From Pirellulales bacterium (lineage in GTDB: Bacteria; Planctomycetota; Planctomycetia; Pirellulales; Lacipirellulaceae): a stretch of DNA of 64,000 bases. Shown here piece after piece: positions 4,003-52,113 of this stretch; positions within the stretch are counted from its first letter, which is position 1, and each line of letters begins with the position of its first letter. The notes under the pieces were generated by a model that had not been told where the DNA came from, made no database searches, and worked only from the letters and a program-made list of their open reading frames with translations. The stretch covers positions 295-64,294 of the forward strand of contig JADZFK010000045.1 in NCBI GenBank assembly GCA_020849945.1, given 5' to 3'. Both the position numbers and the translations under genes were made by a program.

Positions 4003-4185
4003 CCGGATTTCTCACCACGGAGCACACAGAGGTCACGGAGGACAAGCCAAGAGATCGTTTGAAGCAAGGTCAAGCGCCCGTACCTACGAGACAGGGTGTT
4101 TCCGCCGTTCATTGGGGTAGGGGTACTTGCTACTGGTTTTCTCCGTGGCTCCGTGCCTCCGTGGTTTTGATTGTGAGAATTGGGG
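4003..4185 (+). repeat. ~183 bp MITE-like palindromic element, copy 1 (CACGGAG-type arms)
   Basis: Left end CCGGATTTCTCACCACGGAGCACACAGAGGTCACGG pairs with right end CCGTGGCTCCGTGCCTCCGTGG..TGTGAGAA. It is near-identical to 25704-25888. Confidence 0.85.
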
Positions 4186-5337: not shown

Positions 5338-8300
5338 GTGGCGAATCGGGCGTTTATCACAGTAGACGGTAATGAAGCGGCGGCCTCGGTGGCCCATCTC
5401 ACCAATGAAGTGATCGCGATTTATCCGATCACGCCGGCCTCGAACATGGGCGAACTCGCCGACTATTGGACGAGTCGCGGTCAAACGAACATCTTCGGCA
5501 GCGTGCCGGAAGTGATCGAAATGCAGAGCGAAGCCGGCGCGGCGGCCAGCGCACACGGCGCCCTGCAAGCCGGTTCGTTGACGACGACCTTCACGGCTTC
5601 TCAGGGTTTGTTGTTGATGATCCCCGAGATGTTCAAGATTGCTGGCGAACTGACGCCGACGGTCTTTCACATAGCGGCCCGCGCGGTTGCCACGCACGCG
5701 CTTTCGATTTTTGGCGATCACAGCGACGTGATGGCTTGCCGCAGCACGGGTTGGGCCATGCTGGCGGCGAATAGTGTGGAAGAAGCCCAAGATATTGCCC
5801 TGATTGCGCAGGCCGCAACGCTGCGTGCCCGGGTTCCGTTCCTGCATTTCTTCGATGGCTTCCGCACGTCGCACGAAGTTAACAAGATCGAGCAGCTCAC
5901 GCACGACGACATCCGCTGGATGATCGACGAATCGCTTGTGCAGGAGCATCGCGAACGGGCCCTTTCGCCCGATAACCCCGTGCTGCGAGGCTCGGCGCAA
6001 AACCCCGACGTTTTCTTCCAGGCTCGCGAGGCATCGAACCCCTTCTATCTTGCCGTGCCTGGCATCGTCCAAGAAACGATGGACCGCTTTGCCGAACGCA
6101 TTGGGCGACAGTATCGCTTGTTCGAGTATTTCGGCTCGCCCAGCGCGCGGCGTGTATTGGTGATGATGGGTTCGGGCATCGGTGCGGCGGAAGAGGCGAT
6201 CGAACGGCTCATGGCCGAAGGCGAGGAAGTTGGCCTTTTGAAGGTGAGGCTTTATCGCCCCTTCGCTACCGAGGCGTTTTTGGCGGCGTTGCCCGCCACG
6301 GTCGAGCGCATGGCCGTGCTGGACCGCACGAAGGAACCCGGCGCCATTGGCGAGCCGCTTTACCTGGATGTGGTAACGGCCCTGGCCGAAGGGGACTTCG
6401 GGGGATCGGTTTCCGCGGAATCGCGTCCCGCTTGCAGGCCCGAGGTTTACGGTGGCCGCTACGGGTTGGCCTCCAAGGAGTTTACGCCGGCCATGGTGGC
6501 GGCCGTTTTCGATCATCTCAAAGAACCGCAACCCAAGCGCCATTTTACAGTTGGCATTTACGACGATGTCACCAACCTCAGCCTGAAGTGGGATCCCTCC
6601 TTCACCACCGAGCGCGGCGATGTTACCCGGGCCATCTTCTTCGGACTCGGCAGCGACGGCACGGTTGGCGCGAACAAGAACTCGGTCAAGATCATCGGCG
6701 AGAACACGCCGTTGTTTGCCCAGGGCTACTTCGTGTACGACTCGAAGAAGAGCGGGGCCGTTACCGTTTCGCACTTGCGATTTAGCCCGCGGCCGATTCG
6801 TTCGACATACCTTATCGAGGAGGCCAATTTCGTCGCTTGTCATCAATTCCACTTGATTGAAACGCTCGACGTACTGAAGGTGGCGGCCCGCGGCGGCACG
6901 TTCCTGCTCAACAGTCCGTACGCGGCCGACCAGGTGTGGCAACATCTGCCGAGCCAGGTGAAGCGGCAGATCGTTGAGAAGCAGTTGAAGTTCTATGTTG
7001 TCGATGGCCACGGCGTGGCCCGCGAAACGGGCATGGGCGGACGCATCAACACCGCCATGCAAGCCTGTTTCTTTGCCCTGGCGGGCATGCTTCCGCGCGA
7101 TGCGGCCATCGAAGAGATCAAGAATGCGATCCGGAAAACCTACGGCAAACGAGGCCAATCCATCCTCGATCAGAACTTTTCCGCCATCGATCTCGCGCTC
7201 GAACGGCTTCAGGAAGTGAACGTACCGGCCGGTGCCCATGCGATGGAGGAGGGAGGCACGAACGGTTTTGTTTCGTTCCAAACGAACGACGACTTCGTCC
7301 AGCGTGTCACGGCCGCCATTTTTGCTGGCCGCGGCGATCTCCTTCCCGTTAGTGCCATGAATGTCGATGGCACGTTCCCCACGGGTACCGCCAAGTACGA
7401 AAAGCGAAGTATTGCGAACGAGATTCCGATCTGGGACCCGTCCATCTGCATCGATTGCGGTTTGTGCGCGCTCGTGTGTCCGCACTCGGCCATCCGCATG
7501 AAGGCCTTCCCCGACTCGGCGTTGGCGGGCAAGCCGGGCGGATATCAATCGAAGACGTGGAAGGATAAGGATCACGCCGATTACCTGCTGACGATCCAGG
7601 TTGCCCCCGACGACTGCACGGGTTGCGGCGTGTGCGTGGACGTGTGCCCCGCCAAGAGCAAGGAAGCGGTCAAGCATAAGGCGATCAACATGGAGCCGAA
7701 GCTCGACCATTTGAACCGCGAGCGCGAAAACTTCGACTTCTTCCTCAAGATTCCCGAGTTCGATCGCACGCGGGCCAAGGTCGATGTTGTGAAGGGTTGC
7801 CAATTGCTCGAACCCCTGTTCGAGTTCAGTGGCGCCTGCTTGGGCTGCGGCGAAACGCCCTATCTCAAACTCATGAGCCAGTTGTTCGGCGACCGCGCGA
7901 TCGTGGCGAACGCCACCGGCTGCTCCTCCATTTATGGCGGCAACCTGCCCACGACTCCTTGGACGAAAGACAAGAACGGCCGCGGCCCCGCCTGGTGCAA
8001 TTCGCTTTTCGAGGATAATGCGGAGTTCGGCCTTGGCATTCGCCTTGCGGCCGATCAACAGCGCGATTACGCCACCGTGCTGCTAAAGCAATTCGCCGAT
8101 CGATTGGGTGAAATCTTCGTTAGCGAACTGATCGAGTCGAACGAAACAGACGAGGTTTCGATCGCCGCGCAGCGTGATCGGGTAGCCCGGCTGAAGCGAA
8201 AGCTTGCCGAGTTCAACGAGCCGAAGGCCCGCGAACTGGCCAGCGTGGCCGATGCGCTGGTTCGACGGAGTGTTTGGATTGTTGGTGGTGATGGTTGGGC

Positions 8301-8943
8301 GTATGACATCGGTTTCGGCGGCCTTGACCACGTGCTCACCACGAACCGCGACGTGAACATCCTCGTTCTGGATACGGGCGTGTACTCGAACACGGGCGGC
8401 CAGGCCTCGAAAGCGACTCCCCGCGCCGCCGTCGCCAAGTTCGCCGCCAACGGCAAGGCCATTCGCAAGAAGGACCTCGGCATGCTTGCGGTCGCCTACG
8501 GAAATGTTTACGTTGCTCAAATTGCCGTGGGCGCGAATCCCAACCAAACCTTGCAGGCCATGCTCGATGCCGAATCGTACCGTGGCCCCTCGCTCGTGCT
8601 GGCCTACAGCCAGTGCATCGCGCACGGCATCAACATGACCCGCGGCATGACGCACCAAAAAACGATCGTGCAAACAGGCCTTTGGCCTTTGTTCCGGTAC
8701 GATCCGCGGCTTGCTGTTGCCGGCGAGCGGCCATTCCGCCTCGATAGCCGCAAGCCAACCCTTCGCTTCAAGGAACTGGCCGAGCAGGAAGGGCGTTTTG
8801 CCATGATTGCTCGAAGCGATCCGAAGAACGCCGAGCGATTATTCGCAATGGCCCAGAAGGACATCGACGACCAGTGGCATTACTACGAGCAAATGGCGGG
8901 CGTCGAACGCGAGATCGAGTGGAGCGGCGCGAAAGACGAGTAG
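5338..8943 (+). CDS. nifJ: Pyruvate:ferredoxin (flavodoxin) oxidoreductase, single-polypeptide type
   Basis: 1201 aa. Contains TVDGNEAAA..YPITPAS, two 4Fe-4S motifs (CIDCGLCALVCP, CTGCGVCVDVCP) and the TPP motif GGDGWAYDIGFGGLDH. GTG start. Confidence 0.95.
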   Translation: MANRAFITVDGNEAAASVAHLTNEVIAIYPITPASNMGELADYWTSRGQTNIFGSVPEVIEMQSEAGAAASAHGALQAGSLTTTFTASQGLLLMIPEMFKIAGELTPTVFHIAARAVATHALSIFGDHSDVMACRSTGWAMLAANSVEEAQDIALIAQAATLRARVPFLHFFDGFRTSHEVNKIEQLTHDDIRWMIDESLVQEHRERALSPDNPVLRGSAQNPDVFFQAREASNPFYLAVPGIVQETMDRFAERIGRQYRLFEYFGSPSARRVLVMMGSGIGAAEEAIERLMAEGEEVGLLKVRLYRPFATEAFLAALPATVERMAVLDRTKEPGAIGEPLYLDVVTALAEGDFGGSVSAESRPACRPEVYGGRYGLASKEFTPAMVAAVFDHLKEPQPKRHFTVGIYDDVTNLSLKWDPSFTTERGDVTRAIFFGLGSDGTVGANKNSVKIIGENTPLFAQGYFVYDSKKSGAVTVSHLRFSPRPIRSTYLIEEANFVACHQFHLIETLDVLKVAARGGTFLLNSPYAADQVWQHLPSQVKRQIVEKQLKFYVVDGHGVARETGMGGRINTAMQACFFALAGMLPRDAAIEEIKNAIRKTYGKRGQSILDQNFSAIDLALERLQEVNVPAGAHAMEEGGTNGFVSFQTNDDFVQRVTAAIFAGRGDLLPVSAMNVDGTFPTGTAKYEKRSIANEIPIWDPSICIDCGLCALVCPHSAIRMKAFPDSALAGKPGGYQSKTWKDKDHADYLLTIQVAPDDCTGCGVCVDVCPAKSKEAVKHKAINMEPKLDHLNRERENFDFFLKIPEFDRTRAKVDVVKGCQLLEPLFEFSGACLGCGETPYLKLMSQLFGDRAIVANATGCSSIYGGNLPTTPWTKDKNGRGPAWCNSLFEDNAEFGLGIRLAADQQRDYATVLLKQFADRLGEIFVSELIESNETDEVSIAAQRDRVARLKRKLAEFNEPKARELASVADALVRRSVWIVGGDGWAYDIGFGGLDHVLTTNRDVNILVLDTGVYSNTGGQASKATPRAAVAKFAANGKAIRKKDLGMLAVAYGNVYVAQIAVGANPNQTLQAMLDAESYRGPSLVLAYSQCIAHGINMTRGMTHQKTIVQTGLWPLFRYDPRLAVAGERPFRLDSRKPTLRFKELAEQEGRFAMIARSDPKNAERLFAMAQKDIDDQWHYYEQMAGVEREIEWSGAKDE

Positions 8944-10131: not shown

Positions 10132-11639
10132 TTAGCATGGCGGCGTTTTCGGCGGTACCGATTTGATTTGTTCGGTATCGATTCTTTGTTCGGTATCGAT
10201 TCTTTGTTCGGTATCGATTCCTAGTTCGGCGAGTTGTTTGTTGCGTGTTTTGCGATGGGAGTTGGAAGCCTGCGCGTTTCGGCGGGCATGGTAGGTCTGG
10301 CGGTCGGCTTCCGCCTGGTAGAGTTGTTCGCGACAGCGAGGCGGTAAACCGATCGATTCCACGAAGACGTTAGCGGCTCGCCGGACTTGTTCCATCGTTA
10401 ACAACTCGCCGCTGAGAACATTCTCGCTGGGCGAGAGTTGCTGCCGAACACGGGCACAGAACAATTGGCTCAGAATCGTCACGTAGAGATGCCGATGGAT
10501 GCATCGCCAACCGCGACATTCGAAGTGATCCAGGCCCAGTTCCTCCTTGGCTTCGCGAAAGCAATCTTCGATGGGCCAACGTCCAAAGGCGACCCGCAGG
10601 AGCTTTCGCAGCGGCCAACCTTCGCGACCAGGCACGCGGTTGGACAAGAAGTACTTGGTTTCCCCTGCCAGCACGTTGCGAGCGACGAGGAGAGTGCCTT
10701 GGTTGCTGACCAGCGTATTGGTATGGGTCTTTCGCCAACAAGTGTGCCAACGGATTTCCCAGACCTCGCTGCCACGATGAGTCTGCTTGATGCGATAGGG
10801 CTGCGGTGTCTGCTCGCGAAATGCCGGGGAGTGTTTCGCCAGGTTTTGAACTTCGCTCGGATTCCTTTCACGCTGTCGTAACCGAGGGTATTTCTTGGGG
10901 CGACCGCCGCTGTGGAGGGGCGGCGTTTTCAGTACTTTCGGCTTTGTAAGCCAAACATGGGCGTTCGGCGGAATCTCCACGACGAAGGCCTCCGAACGCT
11001 CGTCCAGGCCATCCAGAAACGCACCGTCGCGACCGTACAGTTCGTCCGCCGTCCAGGCCAGCACCTGGATGCCGTTGTCTCTGGCCCGGTCGATCAGATC
11101 CAACGCGATTTGGGGCTTCGTTTTGAAGGTGACGTCGTCGGGGATGTAGTTTTTTTTCGGCGCTCCGGATCGGAGGCCCATTCTTGGGGAAGGTACAACT
11201 GGGCGTCCAGTAAACAATCGAATCCAGGCACGGAATAGGCCAAGGTCACGCTGTTGACGCAATTCTCGATCTTTCCCCGATTGCCGTTGTACTGTCGTTG
11301 GACTCCGGCCGTTTGCCGACCACTTTTGGCCGTTCCGGTCTCGTCGATGCAACCAATCGCTTCCGGACGGGCGTGTTCGGTGGCGACAAGCTGCTGGCAA
11401 CGGTGTCGTAACTTGTGTTCGTCCCAAACGATGGATTCGAGAAATCGCTGCAAGGTTCGGGGGGCGACATTCTGATCCAGCGCGATCGCCTCGGCGTTCT
11501 TGCGCTGCACGCCCGAGAGCAGACCCCGAACATAAACAGCCAAGAGTGTTCGCCCGCCAGGCCGAGCGAAACAGCAAGCAAAATTTGCCAAAAACTGGGC
11601 GAGCATTTTGCCCAGCTTTGCGATATCCTGAACCGACAT
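10132..11639 (-). CDS. IS701-family DDE transposase, in two frames joined by a -1 shift at an A8 run (T8 on + strand, 11150-11157)
   Basis: The N-terminal frame (11639 down to ~11150) carries CIDETGTAKSG..QRQYNGNRGKIENC. The C-terminal frame carries NYIPDDVTFKTKP..AWTADELYGRD..FREAKEELGLDHFECRGW. The first ~176 codons of the 515 aa ORF are out-of-frame read-through. Confidence 0.85.
10167..10220. repeat. 18 bp x3 perfect tandem repeat (TTTGTTCGGTATCGATTC) in the 3' end of the transposase gene
   Basis: Read directly from the sequence. It encodes the GIDTEQRIDTEQRIDTEQ tail. Confidence 0.9.
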
Positions 11640-13174: not shown

Positions 13175-13425
13175 TCGAATCCCCGTCTCGTGGAAAATGG
13201 ACTTACGCACACAGTTTCCGACTCCGTCCTAGTATCTCACTTGAGCAGGAAAAATGCCAGTTTCATTGACAAACTTTGGTTCGCTCTGCAGGCATCGCCC
13301 CCCCTGCACAACGTGGCTGAGTTTCACTAGAATGCACATACCCTTTGACAACTTACCCATGCCGTGCCCCCATGCAGCCGCCTCGCGGCCACGGCTTCAC
13401 GCCTGCCGACGTCGAGCGACCGCCG

Positions 13426-14547
13426 ATGACGACCGAATTACTTTGCACCCCGCTCCACGCTTGGCATGCCGCACACGGTGGCCGCATGGTCGATTTTGCC
13501 GGCTGGAGCATGCCGGTTCAGTATTCGTCGATTGCCGACGAACACAACGCCACGCGCAATGCGGTGGGCGTGTTCGATATCAGCCACATGGGTCGGCTGC
13601 AATTCTTCGGCCCCAACACGGCGAAGTTTCTGGATTCACTCGTCACTCGCCGGGTGGCCGATCTCAAACCGAACCAGGTTCGGTACGCCTTGGCCTGCAA
13701 CGAAGCGGGCGGGATTCTCGACGATGTGCTCGTCTACGGCCCCTCGGCAGATGGCTCGCGGCCGTACTCGATGGTCGTCAACGCCGGTAACCGCGAGAAG
13801 ATCGTGGCTTGGCTTACCAAATTGGCACCGGCTGCTGAAGTGACTTTTCGGGATGATACGCGATCGACGGCGATGATCGCCGTGCAAGGGCCTAAGGCGA
13901 TCGAGGTGGTGCAACCGTTTATCACCGCCGAGAAACCGCTGCTCGAGATGCGGTACTACACCTGCTCGAATGGCACGGTCGCGGGGACGGCGGCACTGGT
14001 GAGCCGCACCGGCTACACGGGCGAGGATGGCATCGAAATCATTTGTCCGGCGGCGCAAGCCACCATGATTTGGGAAAAGTGCCTCGCGGCGGCCATGCCG
14101 GTCGGCGGCATGGCGGTCGGCCTCGGCGCGCGCGACACATTGCGGCTCGAAGCGGCCATGCCGCTCTACGGTCACGAGTTGTTAGAAACGATCAACCCGC
14201 TTGCGGCGGGCCTCAACTTTGCCGTGAACCTGGGCGGCCGCGAGTTCCTCGGCAGCAAGGCACTGGAGAAGGTTGTCGACGACAAGGCGCAGCCGGTCCG
14301 CATCGGCCTGATGCTTGAAACGAAACGGGTGCCGCGCGAACACAGTGCCGTGTTTGCCGCCGGCAACCAGGTGGGCGAAGTCACCAGCGGCACGTTTTCG
14401 CCCACGTTGCAACAACCAATCGCGATGGCCTACATCCAACCCCAACAAGCGGTGGAAGGTTCGACCGTGGAAGTCGATATCCGCGGAACAATGTACCCAG
14501 CCACGATCGTGCCCTTGCCGTTTTATCAACGAACCAAGAAGAATTAA
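13426..14547 (+). CDS. gcvT: Glycine cleavage system aminomethyltransferase (T protein)
   Basis: TPLHAWHAAHGGRMVDFAGWSMPVQY, AVGVFDISHMGR, SRTGYTGEDGIEI. Start moved to the ATG giving MTTELL. Confidence 0.93.
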   Translation: MTTELLCTPLHAWHAAHGGRMVDFAGWSMPVQYSSIADEHNATRNAVGVFDISHMGRLQFFGPNTAKFLDSLVTRRVADLKPNQVRYALACNEAGGILDDVLVYGPSADGSRPYSMVVNAGNREKIVAWLTKLAPAAEVTFRDDTRSTAMIAVQGPKAIEVVQPFITAEKPLLEMRYYTCSNGTVAGTAALVSRTGYTGEDGIEIICPAAQATMIWEKCLAAAMPVGGMAVGLGARDTLRLEAAMPLYGHELLETINPLAAGLNFAVNLGGREFLGSKALEKVVDDKAQPVRIGLMLETKRVPREHSAVFAAGNQVGEVTSGTFSPTLQQPIAMAYIQPQQAVEGSTVEVDIRGTMYPATIVPLPFYQRTKKN

Positions 14548-14554
14548 CTATTTG

Positions 14555-14747
14555 TTCTCACCACAGAGAACACAGAGAACATAGAGGAGAATAAGAGATA
14601 AAGAACACTAATCGTCGCTAATTGCCACTAATGAGGAGTGGTTCAAGAATTTGAGTATTTTTTATCAGTGATAATGAGTGTCGATTAGTGTTCCTAGTTC
14701 TCTCCTGCTTCTTTTTCCTCCGTGTTCTCTGTGCTCTCTGTGGTGAA
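14555..14747. repeat. Palindromic tandem-arm element (CACAGAG type) between gcvT and gcvH
   Basis: TTCTCACCACAGAGAACACAGAGAACATAGAGGAG ... CCTCCGTGTTCTCTGTGCTCTCTGTGGTGAA, with an AT-rich ~120 nt core holding a nested inverted repeat (GAACACTAATCG / CGATTAGTGTTC). Confidence 0.9.
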
Positions 14748-14774
14748 TCAATCGAATTCAGCGGAGGAATCACT

Positions 14775-15173
14775 GTGAAGCCTGAGAGTTTATTGTTTGC
14801 CAAGACACACGAATGGGTTGCCGTTGCTGAAGAGGGTGGCCAGAAGATCGCCACGGTCGGCCTGTCGAAATTCGCCGTCGAGGCCCTGACCGACCTCGTG
14901 TTCATCGAGCTACCGAAGGTCGGCCGGCAGGTGGCGGTCGGCGAATCGTTCTGCGAAGTCGAATCGGTGAAGGCGGTGAGTGACGTGTACGCCCCCGTGG
15001 CCGGCGAAGTCATCGCCGCCAACGATAAGCTGGCCGACAAACTGGAATTATTGAGCAACGACCCCTACGGCGAAGGCTGGGTCGCCCGCATCAAAATCAC
15101 CGACGAAACCGGCCTGAAGAGCCTGATGGATCACGCCGCGTATCAGAAGCAGTGCGCGGAAGAATCGCACTAG
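14775..15173 (+). CDS. gcvH: Glycine cleavage system H protein
   Basis: THEWV.., lipoyl-lysine motif VESVKAVSDVYAP. GTG start with GGAGGA 7 nt upstream; the longer ORF-track start lies inside the repeat. Confidence 0.9.
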   Translation: MKPESLLFAKTHEWVAVAEEGGQKIATVGLSKFAVEALTDLVFIELPKVGRQVAVGESFCEVESVKAVSDVYAPVAGEVIAANDKLADKLELLSNDPYGEGWVARIKITDETGLKSLMDHAAYQKQCAEESH

Positions 15174-15176
15174 CGA

Positions 15177-15217
15177 AATGATGAATGACGAATGATGAAT
15201 GACGAATACGGAGAACG
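15177..15217. repeat. 14 nt tandem repeat (AATGATGAATGACG x2 plus a partial unit ending ACGGAGAA), solo-arm-like
   Basis: Read directly, immediately after the gcvH stop. Confidence 0.8.
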
Positions 15218-15343
15218 ATGGCGAAAGTTAGCGTCGGTCGCCAGACCGACATCTCAACCAACCACGCCTCCACTTCAATCCCCACCTCTATCCAACTAAA
15301 TCCGACCTTGCGGTCGGCGCTAAGCACTCCGAATCGCACCACG

Positions 15344-16678
15344 ATGCCGTATCTCTACAACACGCCCGAAGATCAATCCGCGATGCTATCCGCCATCGGC
15401 GCTAAGTCAATCGACGAACTGTTCGCGATGGTTCCTGCCGAATTGCGGTTGGGCCGCGCGCTCAACTTGCCGCCCGCGATGAGCGAGCTTGAGCTTGCGC
15501 AGCACATGGATGGCTTGGCCATCCGGAACGAGCACGCGGGCTCGAAGATCTGCTTCCTTGGCGGCGGCAGCTATGACCACTTCGTGCCGTCGGCGGTAGA
15601 TGAACTCGCCGGCCGCGGTGAATTCTATACCTCGTACACGCCCTACCAGGCCGAGGTGAGCCAGGGCAATTTGCAGGTTGTGTTCGAGTACCAATCGCTC
15701 ATCGCACGCCTAACGGGCATGGATGTTTCCAACGCCAGCCTGTACGACGGCGGCAGCGCCACGGCCGAGGCCGTGCTCATGGCCGTCAGCAGCACGAACC
15801 GGTTAGGCAAGGTAGTGCTGCCGACGAGTTTGCACCCCGAATATCGCCAAACGATTGCCACGTACCTGAAGGATATCGGCGTCGAGGTAGCGACCGTCGG
15901 CACACCCACGGGCGTGGTGAAGCCGCAAGACCTTGCGGCCGTCGTTGACGACAAGACGGCCTGCGTTGTCGTGCAGCAGCCGAACTTTTTTGGCTGCATT
16001 GAAGATGCCGCTTCGCTCGCTTCGATCGCCCATGATGCGGGCGCACTCGTTGTGGCCGCGTTCGATCCGATCAGCCTGGGCCTCTTAAAGCGACCCGGCG
16101 ATTGGGGTGCCGATATCGCGGTGGCCGAAGGCCAGTCGCTTGGCACGCCGATGCAATACGGCGGCCCTTACCTGGGCATCTTGGCCTGCCGCGAGAAGCT
16201 CATTCGCCGTATGCCGGGCCGCATCGCGGGCGAAACGGTCGACCGTCGTGGCAACCGTTGCTTCGCCCTCACGCTGCAAACCCGCGAGCAGCACATCCGC
16301 CGCGAGAAGGCCACGAGCAACGTCTGCACGAACCAAGGCCTGTTCGCCCTGCGAGCCACGATCTACCTCGCCCTGCTCGGCCCGCAAGGCCTGAAAGAAA
16401 CGGCCAATCTGTGCCTGCAAAAGTCACGCTACGCGGCCGAGCAACTTTGCAAAAGCGATCGATTTGAACTGGCATTCACTGGCCCCACGTTCAAAGAGTT
16501 CGTCATCCGCGACAAACAAAACCACGTCGAGGAAGTGATTGAGAAGGCCCTCGAAGCCGGCTTCCTCGCCGGCGTGCCGCTGGGAAAGTGGTACCCGGAA
16601 CTTAAGGATTGCTTCCTGGTGGCAGTGACGGAGAAGCGGACCAAGACAGAAATCGATCGCCTTGCAACTGCGCTCTAA
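15344..16678 (+). CDS. gcvPA: Glycine dehydrogenase (decarboxylating) subunit 1
   Basis: MPYLYNTPEDQSAMLSAIG..., YTPYQAEVSQGNLQ, 444 aa. Confidence 0.93.
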   Translation: MPYLYNTPEDQSAMLSAIGAKSIDELFAMVPAELRLGRALNLPPAMSELELAQHMDGLAIRNEHAGSKICFLGGGSYDHFVPSAVDELAGRGEFYTSYTPYQAEVSQGNLQVVFEYQSLIARLTGMDVSNASLYDGGSATAEAVLMAVSSTNRLGKVVLPTSLHPEYRQTIATYLKDIGVEVATVGTPTGVVKPQDLAAVVDDKTACVVVQQPNFFGCIEDAASLASIAHDAGALVVAAFDPISLGLLKRPGDWGADIAVAEGQSLGTPMQYGGPYLGILACREKLIRRMPGRIAGETVDRRGNRCFALTLQTREQHIRREKATSNVCTNQGLFALRATIYLALLGPQGLKETANLCLQKSRYAAEQLCKSDRFELAFTGPTFKEFVIRDKQNHVEEVIEKALEAGFLAGVPLGKWYPELKDCFLVAVTEKRTKTEIDRLATAL

Positions 16679-16695
16679 AAATAGCTAGCGACTTT

Positions 16696-16762
16696 CTACC
16701 ACAAAGAACACCAAGATCACGAAGATGATTTCGAAGGATCGTCTTTGTGTTCTTTGTGGTTC
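16696..16762. repeat. Short palindromic tandem-arm element (CACAAAG variant) between gcvPA and gcvPB
   Basis: CTACCACAAAGAACACCAAGATCACGAAG ... CGTCTTTGTGTTCTTTGTGGT. Confidence 0.85.
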
Positions 16763-16786
16763 GACTATTAACATCCCAATTACTCC

Positions 16787-18307
16787 ATGCGTAACACCCG
16801 CGATACCAAACTGCTGTTTGAACTTTCCGAAGCCGGTCGCCGCGCGCACCGGCTGCCGGCTTGCGATGTGCCTGAGCGTACGGCCAAGGAATTGTTGCCG
16901 GCCAGCTCGCTGGCCGCCGCTCCGCCAGCGTTGCCCGAATTGAGCGAGCCGCAGGTTGTGCGGCATTTTGCGAATCTTTCGCAGCTCAACATGAGCGTCG
17001 ACACGCACTTCTACCCGCTCGGCTCGTGTACGATGAAGTACAACCCGAAGCGGAACGAGCGCGCGGCCCGGATGCCCGGCATCGCCGACGTACACCCGTA
17101 CCAGCCGGAAAGCACGTTGCAAGGCATGTTGCAACTTCTTTACGAGATGCAGGAGTACCTGCAGGAGATTTCGGGGCTACCGGCCTGCTCACTGCAACCG
17201 GCTGCGGGGGCCCACGGCGAGCTTACGGCCCTGTGGGTCGCGGCGGCCTACTTCCGCGATCGTAGCGAAAAGCGCACCAAGGTGCTTGTTCCCGATAGTG
17301 CCCACGGCACGAACCCGGCCAGCGCTTCGATGGCCGGTTTCCAAACGGTCACGGTGAAGACGCTCGCCTCCGGCGCGGTCGACATGGACGACTTCCGCCG
17401 GTTACTGGACGATGAAATAGCCGTGTTCATGATCACCAACCCAAACACGGTGGGCGTGTTCGAGCCGAACATGAAAGCCATTGCCGACGCCGTTCATGCT
17501 CGCGGCGGGCTGGTGTATTTGGATGGCGCGAACATGAACGCGATTCTTGGCATCGCCCGGCCGGGCGATTTCGGCGCCGATATGCAGCACTACAACCCCC
17601 ACAAGACTTTTAGCGGCCCGCACGGCGGCGGCGGCCCCGGAGCCGGCCCGATTTGTGTGGCGGAGAAGCTCGCGCCGTACTTGCCCACGCCGGTGGTAGT
17701 GAAAGTCAAGAGTCTTGAGCCAAGAGTCAAGAGCCAGAAGGATGGCTCCACCGCCTCTCCGGCTCTTGACTCTCCGCTCTTGACTCTTGACTATGATCGC
17801 CCCAAATCCATCGGCCGTGTCCGCGCGTTCTTCGGCAACGTGGGCGTGCTTGTGCGGGCTTACTGTTACATCCGCACACATGGGCCTGATGGGCTGAAGC
17901 GAGTCAGCGAGAATGCGGTGCTCAACGCCAATTATTTGCTCAGCAAGGTGAAGCACTTTCTGCCCGTGCCGCAAGGCGACCGCTGCATGCACGAGTTCGT
18001 CGCCACGGCGGGCAAACTCAAGAGCGAAAAAGGCGTCTCCGCAATGGACATCGCCAAACGCTTGTTGGACTACGGCTTTCATGCCCCGACAGTGTACTTC
18101 CCGCTCTCGGTGAAGGAATCGATCATGATCGAACCGACGGAAACCGAGAGCAAGGAAATGCTCGATGCATTTGCGGAGACGCTCTTCCGCGTGATCGGCG
18201 AGGATGCCGAATTGCTCCACGAAGCCCCTCACAGCACGGCCATCAGCCGACCGGACGACGTCCGCGCCGCCCGGCAACCGATGCTTACTTACTCGTCGAA
18301 AGAATAA
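16787..18307 (+). CDS. gcvPB: Glycine dehydrogenase (decarboxylating) subunit 2, carrying an in-frame palindromic-element insertion
   Basis: LFELSEAGRRAHRLP, NPHKTFSGPHGGGGPGAGP, YDRPKSIGRVRAFFGN. The loop between LPTP and YDRP is unusually long. Confidence 0.93.
   Translation: MRNTRDTKLLFELSEAGRRAHRLPACDVPERTAKELLPASSLAAAPPALPELSEPQVVRHFANLSQLNMSVDTHFYPLGSCTMKYNPKRNERAARMPGIADVHPYQPESTLQGMLQLLYEMQEYLQEISGLPACSLQPAAGAHGELTALWVAAAYFRDRSEKRTKVLVPDSAHGTNPASASMAGFQTVTVKTLASGAVDMDDFRRLLDDEIAVFMITNPNTVGVFEPNMKAIADAVHARGGLVYLDGANMNAILGIARPGDFGADMQHYNPHKTFSGPHGGGGPGAGPICVAEKLAPYLPTPVVVKVKSLEPRVKSQKDGSTASPALDSPLLTLDYDRPKSIGRVRAFFGNVGVLVRAYCYIRTHGPDGLKRVSENAVLNANYLLSKVKHFLPVPQGDRCMHEFVATAGKLKSEKGVSAMDIAKRLLDYGFHAPTVYFPLSVKESIMIEPTETESKEMLDAFAETLFRVIGEDAELLHEAPHSTAISRPDDVRAARQPMLTYSSKE
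17704..17792. repeat. Palindromic AGTCAAGAG-type element inside the gcvPB reading frame
   Basis: AGTCAAGAGTCTTGAGCCAAGAGTCAAGAGCCAGAA ... CCGGCTCTTGACTCTCCGCTCTTGACTCTTGACT. It uses the same units and the same GAGCCAGA inner boundary as the intergenic element at 51988-52113. Confidence 0.85.
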
Positions 18308-18337
18308 CTGTCATCGTCTCTCCAAAACTCGGATTGA

Positions 18338-18497
18338 TTCACCACAGAGGGCACAGAGAACACGGAGAAATTCCAAGAGAAGTTGCACATTGAAAACTGC
18401 CGAAGTCGGGAACTTCAATTTGCATTATTCAATTTGCATTTTGCATTTTGCAATCTCTTCCTCACTTCTCCGTGTCCTCTGTACTCTCTGTGGTGAA
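18338..18497. repeat. Palindromic tandem-arm element (CACAGAG/CACGGAG type) between gcvPB and the lipoate ligase gene
   Basis: TTCACCACAGAGGGCACAGAGAACACGGAGAA ... TTCTCCGTGTCCTCTGTACTCTCTGTGGTGAA. The core has ATTTGCAT(T) tandem motifs. Confidence 0.9.
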
Positions 18498-18507
18498 ACT
18501 TCTTGCT

Positions 18508-19317
18508 TTGACCACAGCAACACGTCTCATTATCGATCCGCCGCAGCCCGGCGTGTGGAATATGTCGGTCGATGAAGCTCTGCTGGAAGACGCCGTAGCG
18601 AACGGCATTGCCACACTGCGGTTCTACCAGTGGAATGAACCGACGCTTTCGTTGGGATACTTTCAGTGCTATGCCGACCGCGAACAGCACGCCGCGAGCC
18701 GACAGTGTGTGGCCGTCCGCCGCCAATCGGGCGGCGGGGCGATCTTGCACGACCGGGAGCTAACGTACAGCCTTTCGCTCCCACCGGGTCATCCCCTGGG
18801 AGGCCATGCCCCACGGCTTTATGAAGAGGTTCACTTGGCTTTCATCGCCGCGATTGCGGCCTGCTACCCAAATTTGCTCCAAGGGAAACCGCTCACCCAT
18901 ACCGTAAAGATTCGCGGCGGATCGGCACGAGTTCCCCCTTCTGAAGAACCCTTCCTGTGCTTTCAGCGGGCGGCCGCGGGAGATATTGTTTTCGCACAAC
19001 CAGGCACTGCCGGCGCTGGCCGCGAGAGAATTGTGAAGATTATGGGAAGCGCCCAACGGCGGTACCACAGTGCGATATTGCAGCACGGAAGTTTGCTGCT
19101 TTCCCAAAGCCCCGCCACCCCCGAACTGCCCGGGCTGAAGGAACTGAGCGGATGGGTACCCGTCGTTGGCAGGGTAACGGAACTCGTTGTTGAGCAGCTG
19201 GCTACCAGGCTGGAAATGGCATTGGCTGCCGAAAAAATGAGCGCCCAAGTGCAATCCTTGGCCCGCCGCATTGCGAAGAATAAGTATGGGACAGAGGCCT
19301 GGACAAAACGGCGTTAA
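18508..19317 (+). CDS. Lipoate-protein ligase / octanoyltransferase family protein (BPL/LPL catalytic domain)
   Basis: RLIIDPPQPGVWNMSVDEALLE..LRFYQWNEPTLSLGYFQ..RRQSGGGAILHD. The start is uncertain (TTG 18508, or GTG 18490/18493 inside the repeat). Confidence 0.8.
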   Translation: MTTATRLIIDPPQPGVWNMSVDEALLEDAVANGIATLRFYQWNEPTLSLGYFQCYADREQHAASRQCVAVRRQSGGGAILHDRELTYSLSLPPGHPLGGHAPRLYEEVHLAFIAAIAACYPNLLQGKPLTHTVKIRGGSARVPPSEEPFLCFQRAAAGDIVFAQPGTAGAGRERIVKIMGSAQRRYHSAILQHGSLLLSQSPATPELPGLKELSGWVPVVGRVTELVVEQLATRLEMALAAEKMSAQVQSLARRIAKNKYGTEAWTKRR

Positions 19318-21156: not shown

Positions 21157-21243
21157 CCCGCACCTCTTCGAAGCAACGCCACGGAACAAAGCCGGGGCAC
21201 ACACGGAAGCACGGAGAAGCCGATCGATCGTTGCATGGTAGGT

Positions 21244-21316
21244 CCCGCGAGCCGAGCGGGGCACGGGATTGCCAACTCCGTATCCAAGTTCACGAATCGT
21301 GCCGCTCGGCTCGCGG
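21244..21316. terminator. Long GC-rich hairpin (~19 bp stem, ~32 nt loop) between convergent small genes
   Basis: CCGCGAGCCGAGCGGGGCACG ... CGTGCCGCTCGGCTCGCGG. Confidence 0.4.
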
Positions 21317-21478
21317 CACCTACTTCTCGGCCCAACGGGAAGAACAGCTCGGCCCCGTGACCCATTTGGCAATGACCAATCGTATCGGTGAGATTGTATT
21401 GCACCGCGCTTTGCTACGCGGTGCCTTCGCATCGCGGCTGCCCGAGAAAAACGGTTTCCTCGTTGGCACCTTGGCCGT

Positions 21479-25703: not shown

Positions 25704-25888
25704 CCGGATTTCTCACCACGGAGCACACAGAGGTCACGGTAAACAAGCCAAGAGATCGTTTGAAGAAGGTCAACCGCCTGTAACTACGAGACAGGGTGTT
25801 TCCACCGTTTATTGCGGTAGGGATACTTGTAACCGGTTTTCTCCGTGGCTCCGTGGCACCGTGGTTTTTTCATTGTGAGAAATGCGGA
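25704..25888 (+). repeat. ~185 bp MITE-like palindromic element, copy 2
   Basis: The first 36 nt are identical to copy 1. The core (AAGAGATCGTTTGAAG..CTACGAGACAGGGTGTTTCC..GGTTTTCTCCGTGGCTCCGTG) is shared, in the same orientation. Confidence 0.85.
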
Positions 25889-33720: not shown

Positions 33721-33822
33721 TTCTCACCACAGAGAGCACAGAGAAATGCAGAAATCGGCTTGTCATTGGCAAACTGCCATTTGCAATGATCATTTCTTAT
33801 TCCCTGGGTCCTCTGTGGTGAA
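33721..33822. repeat. Palindromic tandem-arm element (CACAGAG type), short right arm
   Basis: TTCTCACCACAGAGAGCACAGAGAA ... CCTCTGTGGTGAA. The core has a TCATTGGCAAA/ATTTGCAATGA inverted repeat. Confidence 0.8.
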
Positions 33823-34481: not shown

Positions 34482-34776
34482 TCTCACCACGGAACCGCAA
34501 TACGTGGTACGGACTGAAGTCCGTACCACGCACGATGCGCACCATGCGCGCATCCTACGAACGAAGATTCTACGACAACACAACAAAGGCACGAAGGCGT
34601 GGAGAATTCAGATCGGTCATTGCAAATAGGTTATTTGTCATTGACCATTTCAGAAATGCCCCAATTCCAAATGGCCAAGGACCCATGACAAATCGACTTT
34701 TCCTCCGTGTCTCCGTGTCTCCGTGGTAAATGAATGGTAGGATTTCACCACGGAGCACACGGAGACACGGAGAGAA
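34482..34776. repeat. Compound repeat region: CACGGAG-type arms, a perfect 12 bp hairpin and a back-to-back arm pair
   Basis: TCTCACCACGG at 34482. CGTGGTACGGAC-TGAA-GTCCGTACCACG at 34503-34530. TCCTCCGTGTCTCCGTGTCTCCGTGGT (34699-34729) pairs with ACCACGGAGCACACGGAGACACGGAGA (34743-34776). Confidence 0.85.
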
Positions 34777-49416: not shown

Positions 49417-49676
49417 AGAGGGTCAAGGGGCAAGGGTCGAGGGTCGAGGGCCAGAATGTAGGTTGTGCATGGGTTGATCGTTTAGCCGCGACGCGGAGCG
49501 GAGCGCGAAGAAGTAGAAAGGGTCTAGGGTCGAGGATCGAGAGCCAGAACGTAGGGGGGCTCACGAGATGGTAGGGATTGATGGTATCGTAATGGTTTAC
49601 GGCGAAAGTCGCCATCGGGCCGATTCAACCCAACGTGTTCTATTCAACCCTCCTTGCCCTCAACTCTCAACCCTCC
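49417..49676. repeat. Tandem-unit repeat region (GGTCGAG/GGTCAAG units) filling the nadD-priA divergent intergenic region
   Basis: AGAGGGTCAAGGGGCAAGGGTCGAGGGTCGAGGGCCAGAATGTAGG at 49417. A second module GGGTCTAGGGTCGAGGATCGAGAGCCAGAACGTAGG at ~49518. A complementary arm CAACCCTCCTTGCCCTCAACTCTCAACCCTCC at 49643-49676. Confidence 0.8.
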
Positions 49677-51977
49677 ATGCCCCAACAGCAATCACTATTT
49701 GATACCGCGCCAGCACCGTGGGAAGTGGACGATGCGGCGGAAGCGCTCATCGCAACGGTGGTCATTGCGGGCGGGCCCGATGGGGAGTTTGATTACCTGG
49801 CCCCGGGCGAACTCGTTGGGGCGGCCAAGTCCGAGCGGCGTTTGGAAGCGGGGCGACGTGTGCGCGTTCCGTTGGGTCGCGGGAACCGCAGCGTGGTCGG
49901 GTATTGTGTGGCGCTCGAAACGAAGCCCTCTGGCGGGCGGAAACTCAAGTCGGTGGCGTCGGTCGTCGATCGCCAATCGCTCCTTTCGCCGCCGATGCTG
50001 CGATTGGCCCGCTGGATGGCCGAATACTACTTATGCCCGTTAGGGCAAGTGCTGGAAGCAATCGTACCGGCCGGCGTGCGGCACGACGCCGGCTCGCGCC
50101 AAGTGGTCCTGCTCGCGGCCGCCCCCGATGCCGCCGAACGCATCGCCGAGGCCAAACTTTCCGCCAAGCAGGCTGCCGCCATGCAACAACTGCTGGCCTC
50201 CGCCACGCCGCTCACCGCCAAGCAACTCGCCTCCCTTGCAGGCTGCACACTCGCACCGATCAACGAGTTGCGCAAGAAAGGATGGATCGTTACCTCCGTC
50301 GAACGTCAAAATGCCGACCGGCTAGCGCCCCATGCCGCGCCTCGCCAAGCTGCGCTCGAGCTCAACCCCGATCAGGTTGCCGCGCTCGATACGATTCGCG
50401 GTGCCTTGCGCGCGACGGAGCACCGCACGATATTGGTACATGGCGTCACCGGAAGCGGCAAGACGGAAGTATACATCCAGGCCATTGAAGAGGTTGTGCG
50501 ATACGGTCGCCAAGCCATCCTGCTGGTGCCCGAGATCAGCCTCACGCCGCAAACGGTCGGTCGATTTCGGGCTCGGTTCGATCGGGTAGCCGTTCTGCAC
50601 AGCCACCTGAGCGATATCGAGCGGCACGAACACTGGCGGCGGATCGCGCGGGGCGACGTGCAAGTGGTGGTCGGCGCGCGGAGCGCGATCTTTGCCCCCA
50701 CGCCCCACCTGGGTCTGATCGTGTTGGATGAAGAACACGAAGCGACCTTCAAGCAAGAAACGGCACCACGATACCACGCCCGCGACGTAGCCGTTCGCCG
50801 AGCGGCCGACCAAAATGTTCCCCTCGTGCTCGCCAGTGCCACGCCCTCGCTCGAAAGTTGGCGCCGCGCCAAGTGTGGCGAGTTCACGCTGGTGGAAATG
50901 CCTCGCCGCGTGCTGAACTTGCCGATGCCCGTGGTCAGGACCATCGATCTGCGGAACGAAGCGTATGCTCGGGGATCACACGGAGCACTGAGTCGACCGC
51001 TGGTTCGCGCTATGGAAGAATCGCTGGGCGAAGGCGGGCAAGTGATTCTGCTCCTCAACCGCCGCGGCCATTCGACGCACATTCAGTGCCCTTCTTGCGG
51101 CAAATCGATGCAATGCCCGGCCTGCAATCTTTCGCTGACGTTTCATCGCCACGACAACCTGGCGGTGTGCCACTACTGCGATTACCAGGTGCCCGCCCCC
51201 ACCAAGTGCCCCGAGTGCGGCAACCCCGGCATACGGTTCAGCGGCTTGGGTACGCAAAAGCTCGAGGCAGAAGTGCGAGCCAGATTCCCCGATTACCCAT
51301 GCCTGCGAATGGATACCGACAGCATGCGTGGTCGCGGCAGCCACGAGGAGGCGCTTGCTGGATTTCGCGAAGGGCGGCATCGCATCTTGTTGGGAACGCA
51401 AATGATTGCCAAGGGACTGGATTTTCCGAACGTAACGCTCGTGGGCGTGGTGAATGCCGATACGGCCCTGCATTTCCCCGATTTCCGAGCGGCCGAGCGA
51501 ACATTTCAGTTGGTAACGCAAGTGGCCGGCCGCACCGGGCGTGGACCGAAGGGGGGCCGCGTGCTCGTGCAAACGCTTTCGCCCGATGCCGCGGCGATCG
51601 TGGCCGCCGTACAGCACGACTTGCAAGCCTTCGCACGACAAGAGTTGCCGACCCGCGAATCGATGGGTTACCCGCCCTTCGGCGCGATGGCGAGGCTCGT
51701 GACGCGAGGGCCGGAAGAACAAACGTCGCTCGCGTTGGCCGACGAACTGGCCCGCCTCCTCCGCGAGTTGGGCGAACCTTGTTCGCCGCCGATTCGGATT
51801 CTGGGCCCCACCGCGGCACCGATCGCCAAACTCCGTGGCGACTTCCGATTCCACATCCAACTCTTCTCGCCCCAGGGTGAACTGTTGCGCAACACGATCC
51901 GTCGCGCAACCCAAGGCCTGAAACCTCCCGACCACTACGCCTGGATCGTGGACATCGATCCGTTGGATATGATGTGA
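49677..51977 (+). CDS. priA: Primosomal protein N' (replication restart helicase)
   Basis: HGVTGSGKTEVY, DEEHE, Cys-rich zinc motifs (CPSCGKSMQCPACNLSLTFH..CHYCDY..CPECG). Confidence 0.93.
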   Translation: MPQQQSLFDTAPAPWEVDDAAEALIATVVIAGGPDGEFDYLAPGELVGAAKSERRLEAGRRVRVPLGRGNRSVVGYCVALETKPSGGRKLKSVASVVDRQSLLSPPMLRLARWMAEYYLCPLGQVLEAIVPAGVRHDAGSRQVVLLAAAPDAAERIAEAKLSAKQAAAMQQLLASATPLTAKQLASLAGCTLAPINELRKKGWIVTSVERQNADRLAPHAAPRQAALELNPDQVAALDTIRGALRATEHRTILVHGVTGSGKTEVYIQAIEEVVRYGRQAILLVPEISLTPQTVGRFRARFDRVAVLHSHLSDIERHEHWRRIARGDVQVVVGARSAIFAPTPHLGLIVLDEEHEATFKQETAPRYHARDVAVRRAADQNVPLVLASATPSLESWRRAKCGEFTLVEMPRRVLNLPMPVVRTIDLRNEAYARGSHGALSRPLVRAMEESLGEGGQVILLLNRRGHSTHIQCPSCGKSMQCPACNLSLTFHRHDNLAVCHYCDYQVPAPTKCPECGNPGIRFSGLGTQKLEAEVRARFPDYPCLRMDTDSMRGRGSHEEALAGFREGRHRILLGTQMIAKGLDFPNVTLVGVVNADTALHFPDFRAAERTFQLVTQVAGRTGRGPKGGRVLVQTLSPDAAAIVAAVQHDLQAFARQELPTRESMGYPPFGAMARLVTRGPEEQTSLALADELARLLRELGEPCSPPIRILGPTAAPIAKLRGDFRFHIQLFSPQGELLRNTIRRATQGLKPPDHYAWIVDIDPLDMM

Positions 51978-51987
51978 GGGGAGGGGT

Positions 51988-52113
51988 TAGAGTCAAGAGT
52001 CAGACAGTCAAGAGCTTAGAGTCAAGAGTCAAGAGCCAGATAGGAATTGCGCAAAGCAGTTTGTTCGTTGCCTAACTTTCTGGCTCTTGACTCTTGACTC
52101 TCGACTCTTGACT
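51988..52113. repeat. Palindromic AGTCAAGAG-type tandem-arm element between priA and the histidine kinase gene
   Basis: TAGAGTCAAGAGTCAGACAGTCAAGAGCTTAGAGTCAAGAGTCAAGAGCCAGA ... TTCTGGCTCTTGACTCTTGACTCTCGACTCTTGACT. Confidence 0.9.

Follow-up and report, generated by a model that had tools for sequence, protein, structure and literature searches.

Palindromic elements with tandem-unit arms in the glycine-cleavage operon of a Pirellulales bacterium and their probable selfish origin

Introduction

Why should the genes of one metabolic pathway, all read in the same direction, be held apart by spacers filled with long inverted repeats? The question is raised by the glycine-cleavage operon in a stretch of 64,000 nucleotides from a Pirellulales bacterium (GenBank assembly GCA_020849945.1, contig JADZFK010000045.1, positions 295 to 64,294 of the forward strand), the whole of which is called the window in the following. 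The operon consists of gcvT, gcvH, gcvPA, gcvPB and a lipoate-protein ligase-like (LplA-like) gene, in this order and all on the plus strand. An earlier sequence-only reading had pointed to a tandem-unit repeat in each of the four spacers and to a fifth copy inside gcvPB, and had suggested that the RNA stems formed upon transcription might be RNase III processing sites, stabilisers or attenuators that could uncouple the stoichiometry of the T, H and P subunits.

Small palindromic repeats are common in bacterial spacers, and the bare observation of such repeats is unsurprising. What the sequence-only reading overlooked is that the operon elements belong to genome-wide mobile families. They are multi-copy, are gained and lost in a lineage-specific manner, can be nested, lie in transcribed spacers as well as in one permissive in-frame turn of a protein, and have arms that evolve in concert. 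We favour the explanation, to which we assign a probability of roughly 0.7, that the gcv operon has been colonised by dispersed, fast-turnover palindromic DNA with arms of 7-9 nt tandem units. This DNA would be selfish in the manner of the intervening sequences (IVS) of 23S rRNA and the short tandemly repeated repetitive (STRR) sequences of cyanobacteria, and would represent the Planctomycetota counterpart of IVS stems and STRR hairpins.

Results

Hairpins were scored if their arms were at least 16 nt long, at least 80% complementary and separated by a loop of at most 260 nt, with 30 dinucleotide shuffles of the sequence serving as control. The window contains 17 such hairpins as compared to 1.5 in the shuffles (about 10-fold). 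For hairpins whose arms are built of tandem units, the numbers are 7 and 0.1 (about 70-fold), and four of these seven fall within the 5.9-kb operon (binomial p = 0.002).

The spacer hairpins belong to one family, which we call CCAC-RR-AG. Units of 8-9 nt with the pattern CAC-RR-AG-(R)R make up its arms, and its elements end in TCACCAC...GTGGTGA. Element A (14558-14746), located between gcvT and gcvH, has 9-nt units (CACAGAGAA) and outer arms at 14558-14591 and 14713-14746 (34 nt, 88% complementary); the 240 nt at 14548-14787, which cover the spacer, fold at -100.3 kcal/mol (z -9.5). A further hairpin with units of about CACTAATCG is nested in its loop (14603-14693; arms of 30 nt, 80% complementary; period 10 according to Tandem Repeats Finder, TRF), and inner hairpins that resemble it, of the CACTAATC type, are found in the relatives L094 and L170. 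Element B (16698-16760), a short member with CACAAAGAA units, lies between gcvPA and gcvPB; its arms at 16698-16716 and 16742-16760 (19 nt) are 95% complementary, and the spacer folds at -32.4 kcal/mol (z -5.3). Element D (18338-18497), between gcvPB and the ligase gene, has arms at 18338-18369 and 18466-18497 (32 nt, 91% complementary) and carries a TTTGCAT heptamer array in its loop (18414-18452), and the 213 nt at 18308-18520 that cover this spacer fold with a z of -7.9. The 5′ end of D is related to the 3′ end of A: positions 18332-18370 and 14715-14753 are 95% complementary over 39 nt, and the match extends beyond the repeats.

The spacer between gcvH and gcvPA is different. At 15177-15207 it holds a solo direct array of AATGATG/AATGACG units on the plus strand (4.4 copies according to TRF), and the region 15177-15217 has no complementary arm and no fold (0 kcal/mol). 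Thus, the picture of a tandem-unit repeat in each of four spacers holds with respect to three hairpins, for whose transcripts RNA stems of 19-34 bp are expected and whose spacers fold strongly, but the fourth spacer contains a direct array rather than a hairpin. The proposed fifth copy within gcvPB is indeed a hairpin, but it consists of AGAGTCA heptamers and so is a member of another family than the three spacer elements.

Both families occur outside the operon. The CCAC-RR-AG motif has 10 matches in the window, where 0.04 are expected, and the 64 kb contain at least 7 copies of this family and 2 of the AGAGTCA family. Two of the CCAC-RR-AG copies form a pair of paralogues, one at 4012-4166 with the arms TCACCACGGAG...CTCCGTGG and the other at 25713-25866. 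Over the whole element they are 87% identical, and this includes a non-repetitive loop of about 95 nt (GTACCTACGAGACAGGGTGTTTCC...GGTAGGGGTACTTG), an identity that can hardly be explained other than by copying of the whole element. Both copies are extended by an outer palindrome, CCGGATTTCTCAC / GTGAGAAWTGSGG, and their conserved loop could carry a site for protein binding or a small RNA. A further intergenic copy lies at 33724-33821 (arms TCACCACAGAGAGCACAGAGAA / TTCCCTGGGTCCTCTGTGGTGA), and TRF and folding revealed an 'inside-out' hairpin of CCAC-RR-AG units at 34703-34773, with the structure (CTCCGTGT)3 ... (CACGGAGA)3. As to the AGAGTCA family, its second copy is found between two genes at 51989-52113 (arms of 38 nt, 89% complementary) and shares an identical GAGCCAGA apical stem with the insert in gcvPB.

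Per 100 kb, the window has 10.9 tandem-unit hairpins and loci of close Pirellulales have 18.5, as compared to 6.4 for other Planctomycetota and 2.3, mostly spurious ones, for unrelated bacteria. Since both families were also encountered in Lacipirellula parvula (L168, at 2742-2828 and 8380-8477), a cultured organism whose genome is complete, they are not assembly artefacts. The elements furthermore have a polarity, in that the 5′ arm is the purine-rich one in 35 of 40 tandem-unit hairpins from Planctomycetota loci (p about 1e-6). Because a palindrome looks alike on both strands, this purine-first arrangement is an intrinsic property of the element.

The clearest view of turnover comes from the in-frame hairpin in gcvPB, element C (17704-17792, plus strand), whose arms of 35 nt are 86% complementary and whose surroundings (106 nt) fold at -59.4 kcal/mol (z -8.1). 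It encodes approximately residues 307-333, 27 residues in place of the 6 of Thermus GcvPB, and the alignment to the latter (1WYT chain B) breaks between residues 306 and 334, exactly at the element. We classified the inserts of the 120 closest GcvPB homologues (79-100% identity) by their peptide motifs. The turn is short (VVAKDGDRYRLDY) in 47 of them, while the other 73 have 10-55 extra residues at exactly the same site. At least five heptamer classes of insert can be distinguished, among them VKSQESRVKSQ..ALDSRLSTLDS, EGSGFRVQGS..LNPEPRTLNP, ERSEVRGQRSE..TSDLRPPTS, EEPGVRSQ..TPDSRLPTP and LRIADCGLRIE..SEIRNPKSEIA as well as others, and they are scattered over the protein tree. In the DNA of the relatives, these peptides turn out to be translated heptamer hairpins of AGAGTCA, GGGTTCA, GAGGTCA or GGAGTCA. 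Of the eight inserts read at the DNA level, seven have folding energies of about -51 to -66 kcal/mol, and the remaining one, the 26-residue insert of L001, has only -33.

P0112, which has a 27-residue insert, and P0118, which has none, are 99.3% identical elsewhere, and P0062 and P0092 are 98.9% identical and carry unrelated inserts. Throughout, the reading frame is open in all 73 homologues with an insert. This is demanding for the 3′ arm, because a 7-nt unit cycles through the three frames, such that TGACTCT and similar units would inevitably place a TGA in frame. When the codons at the would-be TGA phase were read directly, the other insert-bearing alleles had CCG, AGA, CGA or CGG there in 8 of 8 cases. 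The mismatches between the arms of the gcvPB inserts thus result from the replacement of TGA by other codons, which shows it to be translated. A test in which the 3′ arm was exchanged for an exact complement of the observed 5′ arm was uninformative, since both arms carry the compensating change. From the sequence, then, the stem appears to be translated through, and to be neither removed nor lethal to the mRNA. An AlphaFold2 model of GcvPB was poor (mean predicted local distance difference test, pLDDT, of 60) and showed the insert as a coil of low confidence that joins two short strands, which weakly suggests a disordered loop. A second in-frame case was seen in the lipoate-ligase gene of L083, which contains an AGGATGC heptamer hairpin with arms of 33 nt (8094-8176).

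How stable are the operon elements in related organisms? Among the matches listed in a scan of genome contigs with GcvPB, most came from distant phyla, the peptide patterns being generic, and only L001-L023 were usable. The syntenic operon was compared between twelve close relatives, namely L081-L087, L170 and, as short contigs, L088-L094. The gcvT/gcvH spacer is the most constant one. An element is present there in 13 of the 14 close relatives with a readable, unrearranged spacer, and in the window and the relatives it usually begins at the gcvT stop codon (TAACCAC...) or at most 10 nt from it. The spacer of L087 is empty (19 nt), and L090, which is rearranged and has another gene upstream, retains only a 3′ half-arm. 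The unit sequence varies from genome to genome, being CACAGAG, CACGAAG, CACAAAG, CACGGAG or CGTGGAG. Within one such element the arms match at 20.4 of 26 positions on average, as compared to 13.5 of 26 between orthologous elements (permutation p = 5e-5), which implies concerted evolution of the two arms.

The remaining spacers are occupied in diverse ways. Between gcvH and gcvPA, depending on the relative, we found GGGAGAG, GACAAGGA or CCAATGA hairpins, a palindrome of the GTAG type that resembles a repetitive extragenic palindromic (REP) sequence, a gene-bearing cassette that is described below, or a solo array. The gcvPA/gcvPB spacer contains members of the families described here, a long palindrome unrelated to them, half of an element, or entire inserted genes, namely one for a Fic-domain protein in L085 (4483-5967) and one for a 244-aa open reading frame (ORF) in L086 (5259-5993) that has no family match on record. 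Neither of these two genes is flanked by repeat arrays, from which it follows that the operon spacers accept insertions of other kinds than the hairpin class. The gcvPB/ligase spacer measures 1-56 nt in six relatives, and eight relatives have no CCAC-RR-AG element at this position, such that element D is a lineage-specific gain. In more distant Planctomycetota the gcvT/gcvH spacers are tight. By comparison of the sequences, the ancestral state of the gcvT/gcvH and gcvPB/ligase spacers is tight. In the comparison of related operons that the sequence-only reading had called for, spacers are indeed tight or otherwise occupied in relatives, and their occupancy varies by family, by presence and even by inserted genes, but the site of element A is mostly kept.

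The cassette in the gcvH/gcvPA spacer links the arrays to a gene. In L086, L088, L089 and L092 this spacer consists of (AATGACG)n, followed by a PF05635 gene and then by (CGTCATT)n. PF05635 is the '23S rRNA intervening sequence protein' family of four-helix-bundle proteins, the gene of which we refer to as IVP. Pirellulales metagenomes abound in close homologues of the cassette protein, with identities of 75-96%. In L. parvula, a 78% identical IVP with identical AATGACG arms lies in another operon, moxR-DUF58-[IVP]-batA (cassette at 5020-5470 of L168). The occurrence of the same cassette in a different operon and a different genus means that the AATGACG-armed class moves as a cassette. The array at 15177-15207 of the window has the sequence and the position of a left arm of this cassette, of which it is a relic; no PF05635 gene was found in the window with tblastn or with hidden Markov models of 4 and of 15 sequences. 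Within the 1.46 Mb of loci that served as control, IVP cassettes were the only gene-sized intervals bracketed by inverted arrays of period 7.

The association of PF05635 genes with inverted heptamer arrays extends to other phyla. A search of plasmids with the IVP protein matched 29 records, mostly from Nostocales. Twelve, from Nostocales, Oscillatoriales, Chroococcales, Chloroflexota and Spirochaetota, were inspected, and in at least 9 of these the PF05635 gene lies between heptamer arrays in inverted orientation. The arms consist of AATTCAA in Nostoc flagelliforme (31 nt, 100% complementary), CAATTCG in Nostoc punctiforme (36 nt), TAATTCG in Dolichospermum (33 nt, 100% complementary), AATCGTA in Planktothrix, CCAGTKA in Euhalothece, ATGAATT in Chlorohelix and GGAAAGY in Treponema, and across the phyla their period is strictly 7 nt. 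Heptamer-armed PF05635 genes were often seen in defence clusters (L171-L181, on cyanobacterial and Chloroflexota plasmids): between cas2 and cas1 in Anabaena cylindrica and Nostoc TCL26-01, upstream of cas1 in Pseudanabaena, between DISARM drmD and BREX pglX in Planktothrix, and between a helicase-related gene and a methylase in Chlorohelix.

The gene identities given by the sequence-only reading were confirmed by NCBIfam, and its spacer lengths of 227 (gcvT/gcvH), 170 (gcvH/gcvPA), 108 (gcvPA/gcvPB) and 200 nt (gcvPB/ligase) are obtained once the starts are set by homology. gcvT (aminomethyltransferase, 13426-14547; NF001567, E = 4e-127) begins where the gene call in the relative L081 does, with the same sequence preceding it. 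For gcvH (14775-15173) the start is GTG 14775, which has GGAGG 7 nt upstream, and the NCBIfam GcvH match begins at residue 31-32 of the long ORF. The gcvPA gene (15344-16678) starts at ATG 15344, with the N-terminus MPYLYNTPEDQ as in its relatives, its NCBIfam match starting at residue 43 of the long ORF. gcvPB (16787-18307; NF003346, E = 5e-208) encodes a protein that is 100% identical to P0001, which is annotated in a Pirellulales metagenome-assembled genome. For the lipoate-protein ligase-like gene (18508-19317; LplA-B_cat, NCBIfam and Pfam families), the start is probably TTG 18508, since the N-terminus ...RLIIDPP aligns with the starts in relatives. As had been suspected, the 5′ extensions of the gcvH ORF (from GTG 14688) and of the ligase ORF (from TTG 18448) are artefacts that begin inside the arms of elements A and D.

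The elements sit in what is apparently a single transcription unit; the sole conserved promoter-like site lies upstream of gcvT. This site, TGCACA-17-TAGAAT at 13305-13333, is followed by CCCTTTGACAACT; the TAGAAT-CCCTTTGACAACT motif is also found 5′ of gcvT in relatives, and CCCTTTGACAACT is conserved in L081, L083, L085 and L086. A scan for terminators and promoters gave 9 terminator-like sites where 7.8 are expected, which is chance level. No Rfam family reached its gathering score in the window, so that it contains neither an rRNA nor a glycine riboswitch by this measure, and a permissive Rfam scan of the operon returned only sub-threshold, spurious look-alikes of miRNA precursors.

Three further repeats of the window stand apart from the elements discussed so far. 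A GC-rich palindrome at 21238-21323 (GTAGGTCCCGCGAGCCGAGCGG...CCGCTCGGCTCGCGGCACCTAC; arms of 22 nt, 95% complementary) resembles a GTAG-tagged REP and is of a class distinct from the tandem-unit hairpins; palindromes like it (GTAGGTCAGGC...GCCTGACCTAC) are found in the gcvH/gcvPA spacer of L170 and downstream of gcvH in L090. At 10167-10229, where a minus-strand ORF region starts, an 18-nt unit, TTTGTTCGGTATCGATTC, is repeated in tandem (3.5 copies, 95% matches), and this array does not belong to a hairpin family. Finally, the intergenic region between divergent genes at 49418-49686 has GAGGGTC / AGGGTCG arrays on its left and CCCTCAA / CAACCCTC arrays on its right, about 200 nt apart, and is possibly a large degraded tandem-unit palindrome.

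Discussion

According to the explanation that we favour, the elements are selfish or near-neutral DNA that would settle wherever insertion is tolerated, that is in transcribed spacers and in one surface turn of a protein. The number of units would change by slippage, and the complementarity of the arms would be kept either by correction of one arm by the other or by replacement with fresh copies. The stems probably form upon transcription, and, by analogy with IVS and Correia elements, cleavage by RNase III or shielding of 3′ ends may ensue. Any effect on T:H:P ratios would then be a side effect and not the cause of the presence of the elements.

Several observations weigh against this explanation. 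The occupancy of the gcvT/gcvH site in nearly all relatives could mean that there is selection for a function. No transposase, target-site duplication or defined target motif was found, and shared direct repeats were not seen at the flanks of elements A and D and of the copy at 33724. The units are diverse in sequence, which speaks against a sequence-specific recombinase and is partly in keeping with growth in situ. At the gcvPB site, a comparison of filled and empty alleles at the DNA level (L170 and L084 versus L086 and L169) showed that the turn codons (K-D/N-G-D/E) are replaced, again with no target duplication, and this is not what a clean insertion leaves behind. Also, the window stems from a metagenome-assembled genome, the copy numbers are extrapolated from 64 kb and from fragments of the relatives' genomes, and the transcription, folding and cleavage of the stems are predictions.

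One can ask instead whether the stems are selected, be it as RNase III sites or as 3′-end stabilisers, such that they would segment the gcv mRNA by stability and set the T:H:P ratios. The stems of 19-34 bp are long enough for RNase III, which cuts the heptamer-containing stems of IVS (PMC4990558) as well as Correia elements (PMC10969869), the arms co-vary, and element A has, next to the gcvT stop codon, the position of a 3′-protecting hairpin at a site that is filled in 13 of the 14 readable relatives. This persistence is the best argument for a local benefit, for instance in 3′-end protection, and there may be such a benefit. However, three of the four spacers vary in occupancy, family or content among relatives that have the same enzymes, and a fixed role in T:H:P stoichiometry is unlikely for this reason. 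Furthermore, the transition mismatches on the sense strand are A.C rather than G.U (24 versus 7 overall, 15 versus 7 for the intergenic elements only), the reverse of what a sense RNA helix under selection would show. A similar stem is tolerated inside the gcvPB frame, and the same families are found at unrelated loci, including between divergent genes. Taken together with the absence of U tracts after the hairpins in the spacers that were read and the chance level of terminator-like sites, this makes adaptive tuning of the subunit ratios unlikely. Cleavage by RNase III as a by-product of the hairpins, by analogy with the systems named above, is plausible.

A somewhat less probable alternative is that the elements do not move at all and are 'palindromic microsatellites' that arise by slippage in place together with fold-back template switching, the likeness of the copies being due to convergence. 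The variation of unit number and sequence between orthologous elements that keep their position would fit this view, as would the many unrelated unit sequences and the lack of target-site duplications, and a similar in-place turnover of 7-nt classes is known from the P6b stem-loop of the Nostoc trnL intron (PMC4476775). Convergence does not readily account for the 87% identity of the paralogues at 4012 and 25713 through their non-repetitive loop, nor for the match between elements D and A beyond the repeats, nor for an AATGACG-armed cassette with a 78% identical gene in a different operon of a different genus.

We consider it improbable that the arrays are primarily binding sites for a DNA- or RNA-binding protein, whether a nucleoid protein, a global regulator or the PF05635 protein itself, with the hairpin symmetry being secondary. 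The strict 7-nt period of the cassette arms across phyla and the purine-first polarity of the arms (35 of 40) speak for it, and for Geobacter and Nostoc it has been suggested that heptamer arrays serve as sites for regulators (PMC2700814; bioRxiv 10.1101/2022.06.06.494920). Yet a single genome contains widely differing unit sequences, no binding protein was identified and the window has no PF05635 gene, and tandem sites need no inverted symmetry with co-varying arms. Intrinsic terminators or attenuators, for which the strong stems in co-directional spacers and one terminator-like match overlapping element B might speak, are hardly credible, as the hairpins in the spacers that were read all lack a U tract behind them, terminator-like sites are about as many (9) as expected (7.8), and an equivalent stem lies inside an intact ORF; the suggestion of attenuators in the sequence-only reading is therefore not borne out.

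To return to mobile, selfish palindromes as the favoured explanation, how do they relate to known systems? The closest likeness is to the IVS. In Coxiella, the 23S rRNA IVS contains an S23p (PF05635) ORF within a 28-bp inverted-repeat stem, with tandem GACAGAT heptamers in the stem region, upstream of the ORF, whose number is variable between strains (PMC4990558). It is excised by RNase III, which cuts at the first GACAGAT repeat, and the element is regarded as selfish (PMC4990558). The cassettes of L086, L088, L089, L092 and L168 share with the IVS of Leptospira and Coxiella the inverted-repeat stem that encloses a PF05635 ORF. However, the IVS resides in helix 25 or 45 of the 23S rRNA, whereas the elements described here lie in mRNA spacers and in an ORF; the window retains one arm only, most elements are gene-less, and RNase III cleavage would apply to them by analogy.

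The STRR sequences resemble our elements, as does the P6b stem-loop in the tRNA-Leu intron of Nostoc, at which one of two heptamer classes takes the place of the other without regard to phylogeny (PMC4476775). The likeness lies in their arms of 7-nt repeats, in the swapping of classes at one site against the phylogeny, and in length variation through unit number, as at the gcvPB site. AGAGTCA, AATGAYG and TTTGCAT have the period of 7 that defines heptamer repeats, but the CCAC-RR-AG family, which is the commonest one in Pirellulales, has units of 8-9 nt. The hosts differ as well, being heterocystous cyanobacteria with the repeats in a group I intron or between genes, as opposed to Pirellulales with repeats that include a protein-coding frame. 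In Geobacter metallireducens, multi-copy elements of 4-5 tandem heptanucleotides have been described between and within genes, some of them as strand-switching pairs (PMC2700814), but these were interpreted as regulator sites or RNA elements, and neither a link to PF05635 nor in-frame turnover was reported for them.

Other families share the palindromic form. Correia elements, too, are small inverted repeats that are co-transcribed with operons, and their stems in mRNAs are cut by RNase III (PMC10969869), as the sequence-only reading had proposed for the elements here; they differ by a conserved sequence, TA target duplication and internal promoters, whereas the present elements have diverse tandem-unit arms and no duplication. 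Like MITEs (transposable elements of miniature size with inverted repeats), to which the Correia elements belong, the elements are small, non-coding and dispersed in several copies, with terminal inverted repeats (arms of 19-35 nt, 86-95% complementary; elements of 63-189 nt), but target-site duplication is lacking. The sole gene-bearing version found in the loci analysed carries PF05635 and not a known transposase. REP sequences and the bacterial interspersed mosaic elements (BIMEs), including the GTAG/CGTC-tagged REPs that have been reported in Planctomycetes (PMC3733652), are likewise multi-copy palindromes of operon spacers and proposed mRNA stabilisers. They are 20-40 nt long, carry a conserved tetranucleotide tag and are linked to REP-associated tyrosine transposases (RAYTs), unlike the longer, periodic and untagged arms here (TCACCAC...GTGGTGA). 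The Rickettsia palindromic elements (RPEs; reviewed in PMC10969869) are in-frame palindromes in conserved metabolic genes at positions compatible with function, but they form conserved families of about 150 bp that are found once each at many sites, as opposed to many heptamer classes at one polymorphic site. Intrinsic terminators differ in that they combine a stem with a U tract, which was not seen in the spacer hairpins that were read. The elements thus work like the IVS, STRR, Correia, REP and RPE families, yet belong to none of them, the RPEs being set apart by host and architecture.

The literature that we searched describes neither such elements in Planctomycetota nor a general association of PF05635 genes with inverted heptamer arrays. 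As far as this search goes, what is new for Planctomycetota is the existence of short tandem-unit arms that drift in sequence and nevertheless stay complementary.

It is tempting to go one step further, though this is a tentative idea for which we would not claim even odds. PF05635 genes in inverted heptamer arrays may form a mobile class that crosses phyla, comprising those of Planctomycetota, Cyanobacteriota, Chloroflexota and Spirochaetota as well as the IVS of Coxiella and Leptospira, with the hairpins of Pirellulales and the STRR sequences being gene-less derivatives or solo arms, and with the four-helix-bundle protein recognising or mobilising the arrays. If so, excision of stems by RNase III would render insertions into rRNA and operon spacers harmless, while in-frame copies would have to be translated through, and the turn in gcvPB would be a natural 'landing pad' that displays the process in action.

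What do these elements mean for the genomes that carry them? For practical purposes, they create false 5′ extensions of ORFs and can break assemblies and gene calls in metagenome-assembled genomes of Planctomycetota, and inserts of the GcvPB type are a source of spurious 'low-complexity insertions' in protein databases. The turn in GcvPB is a hot spot where alternative heptamer hairpins are gained, lost and swapped between alleles that are 95-99% identical elsewhere, always in frame, and thus constitutes a natural experiment on the coexistence of a selfish DNA structure with protein coding. The repeats of cyanobacteria known as STRR were reportedly described in 1990 and are, to our knowledge, still unexplained. 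The link between PF05635 and heptamer arrays offers a testable origin for them. It also points to a role for PF05635 itself, a protein family that is very abundant, has no known function and is akin to the Avd proteins of diversity-generating retroelements.

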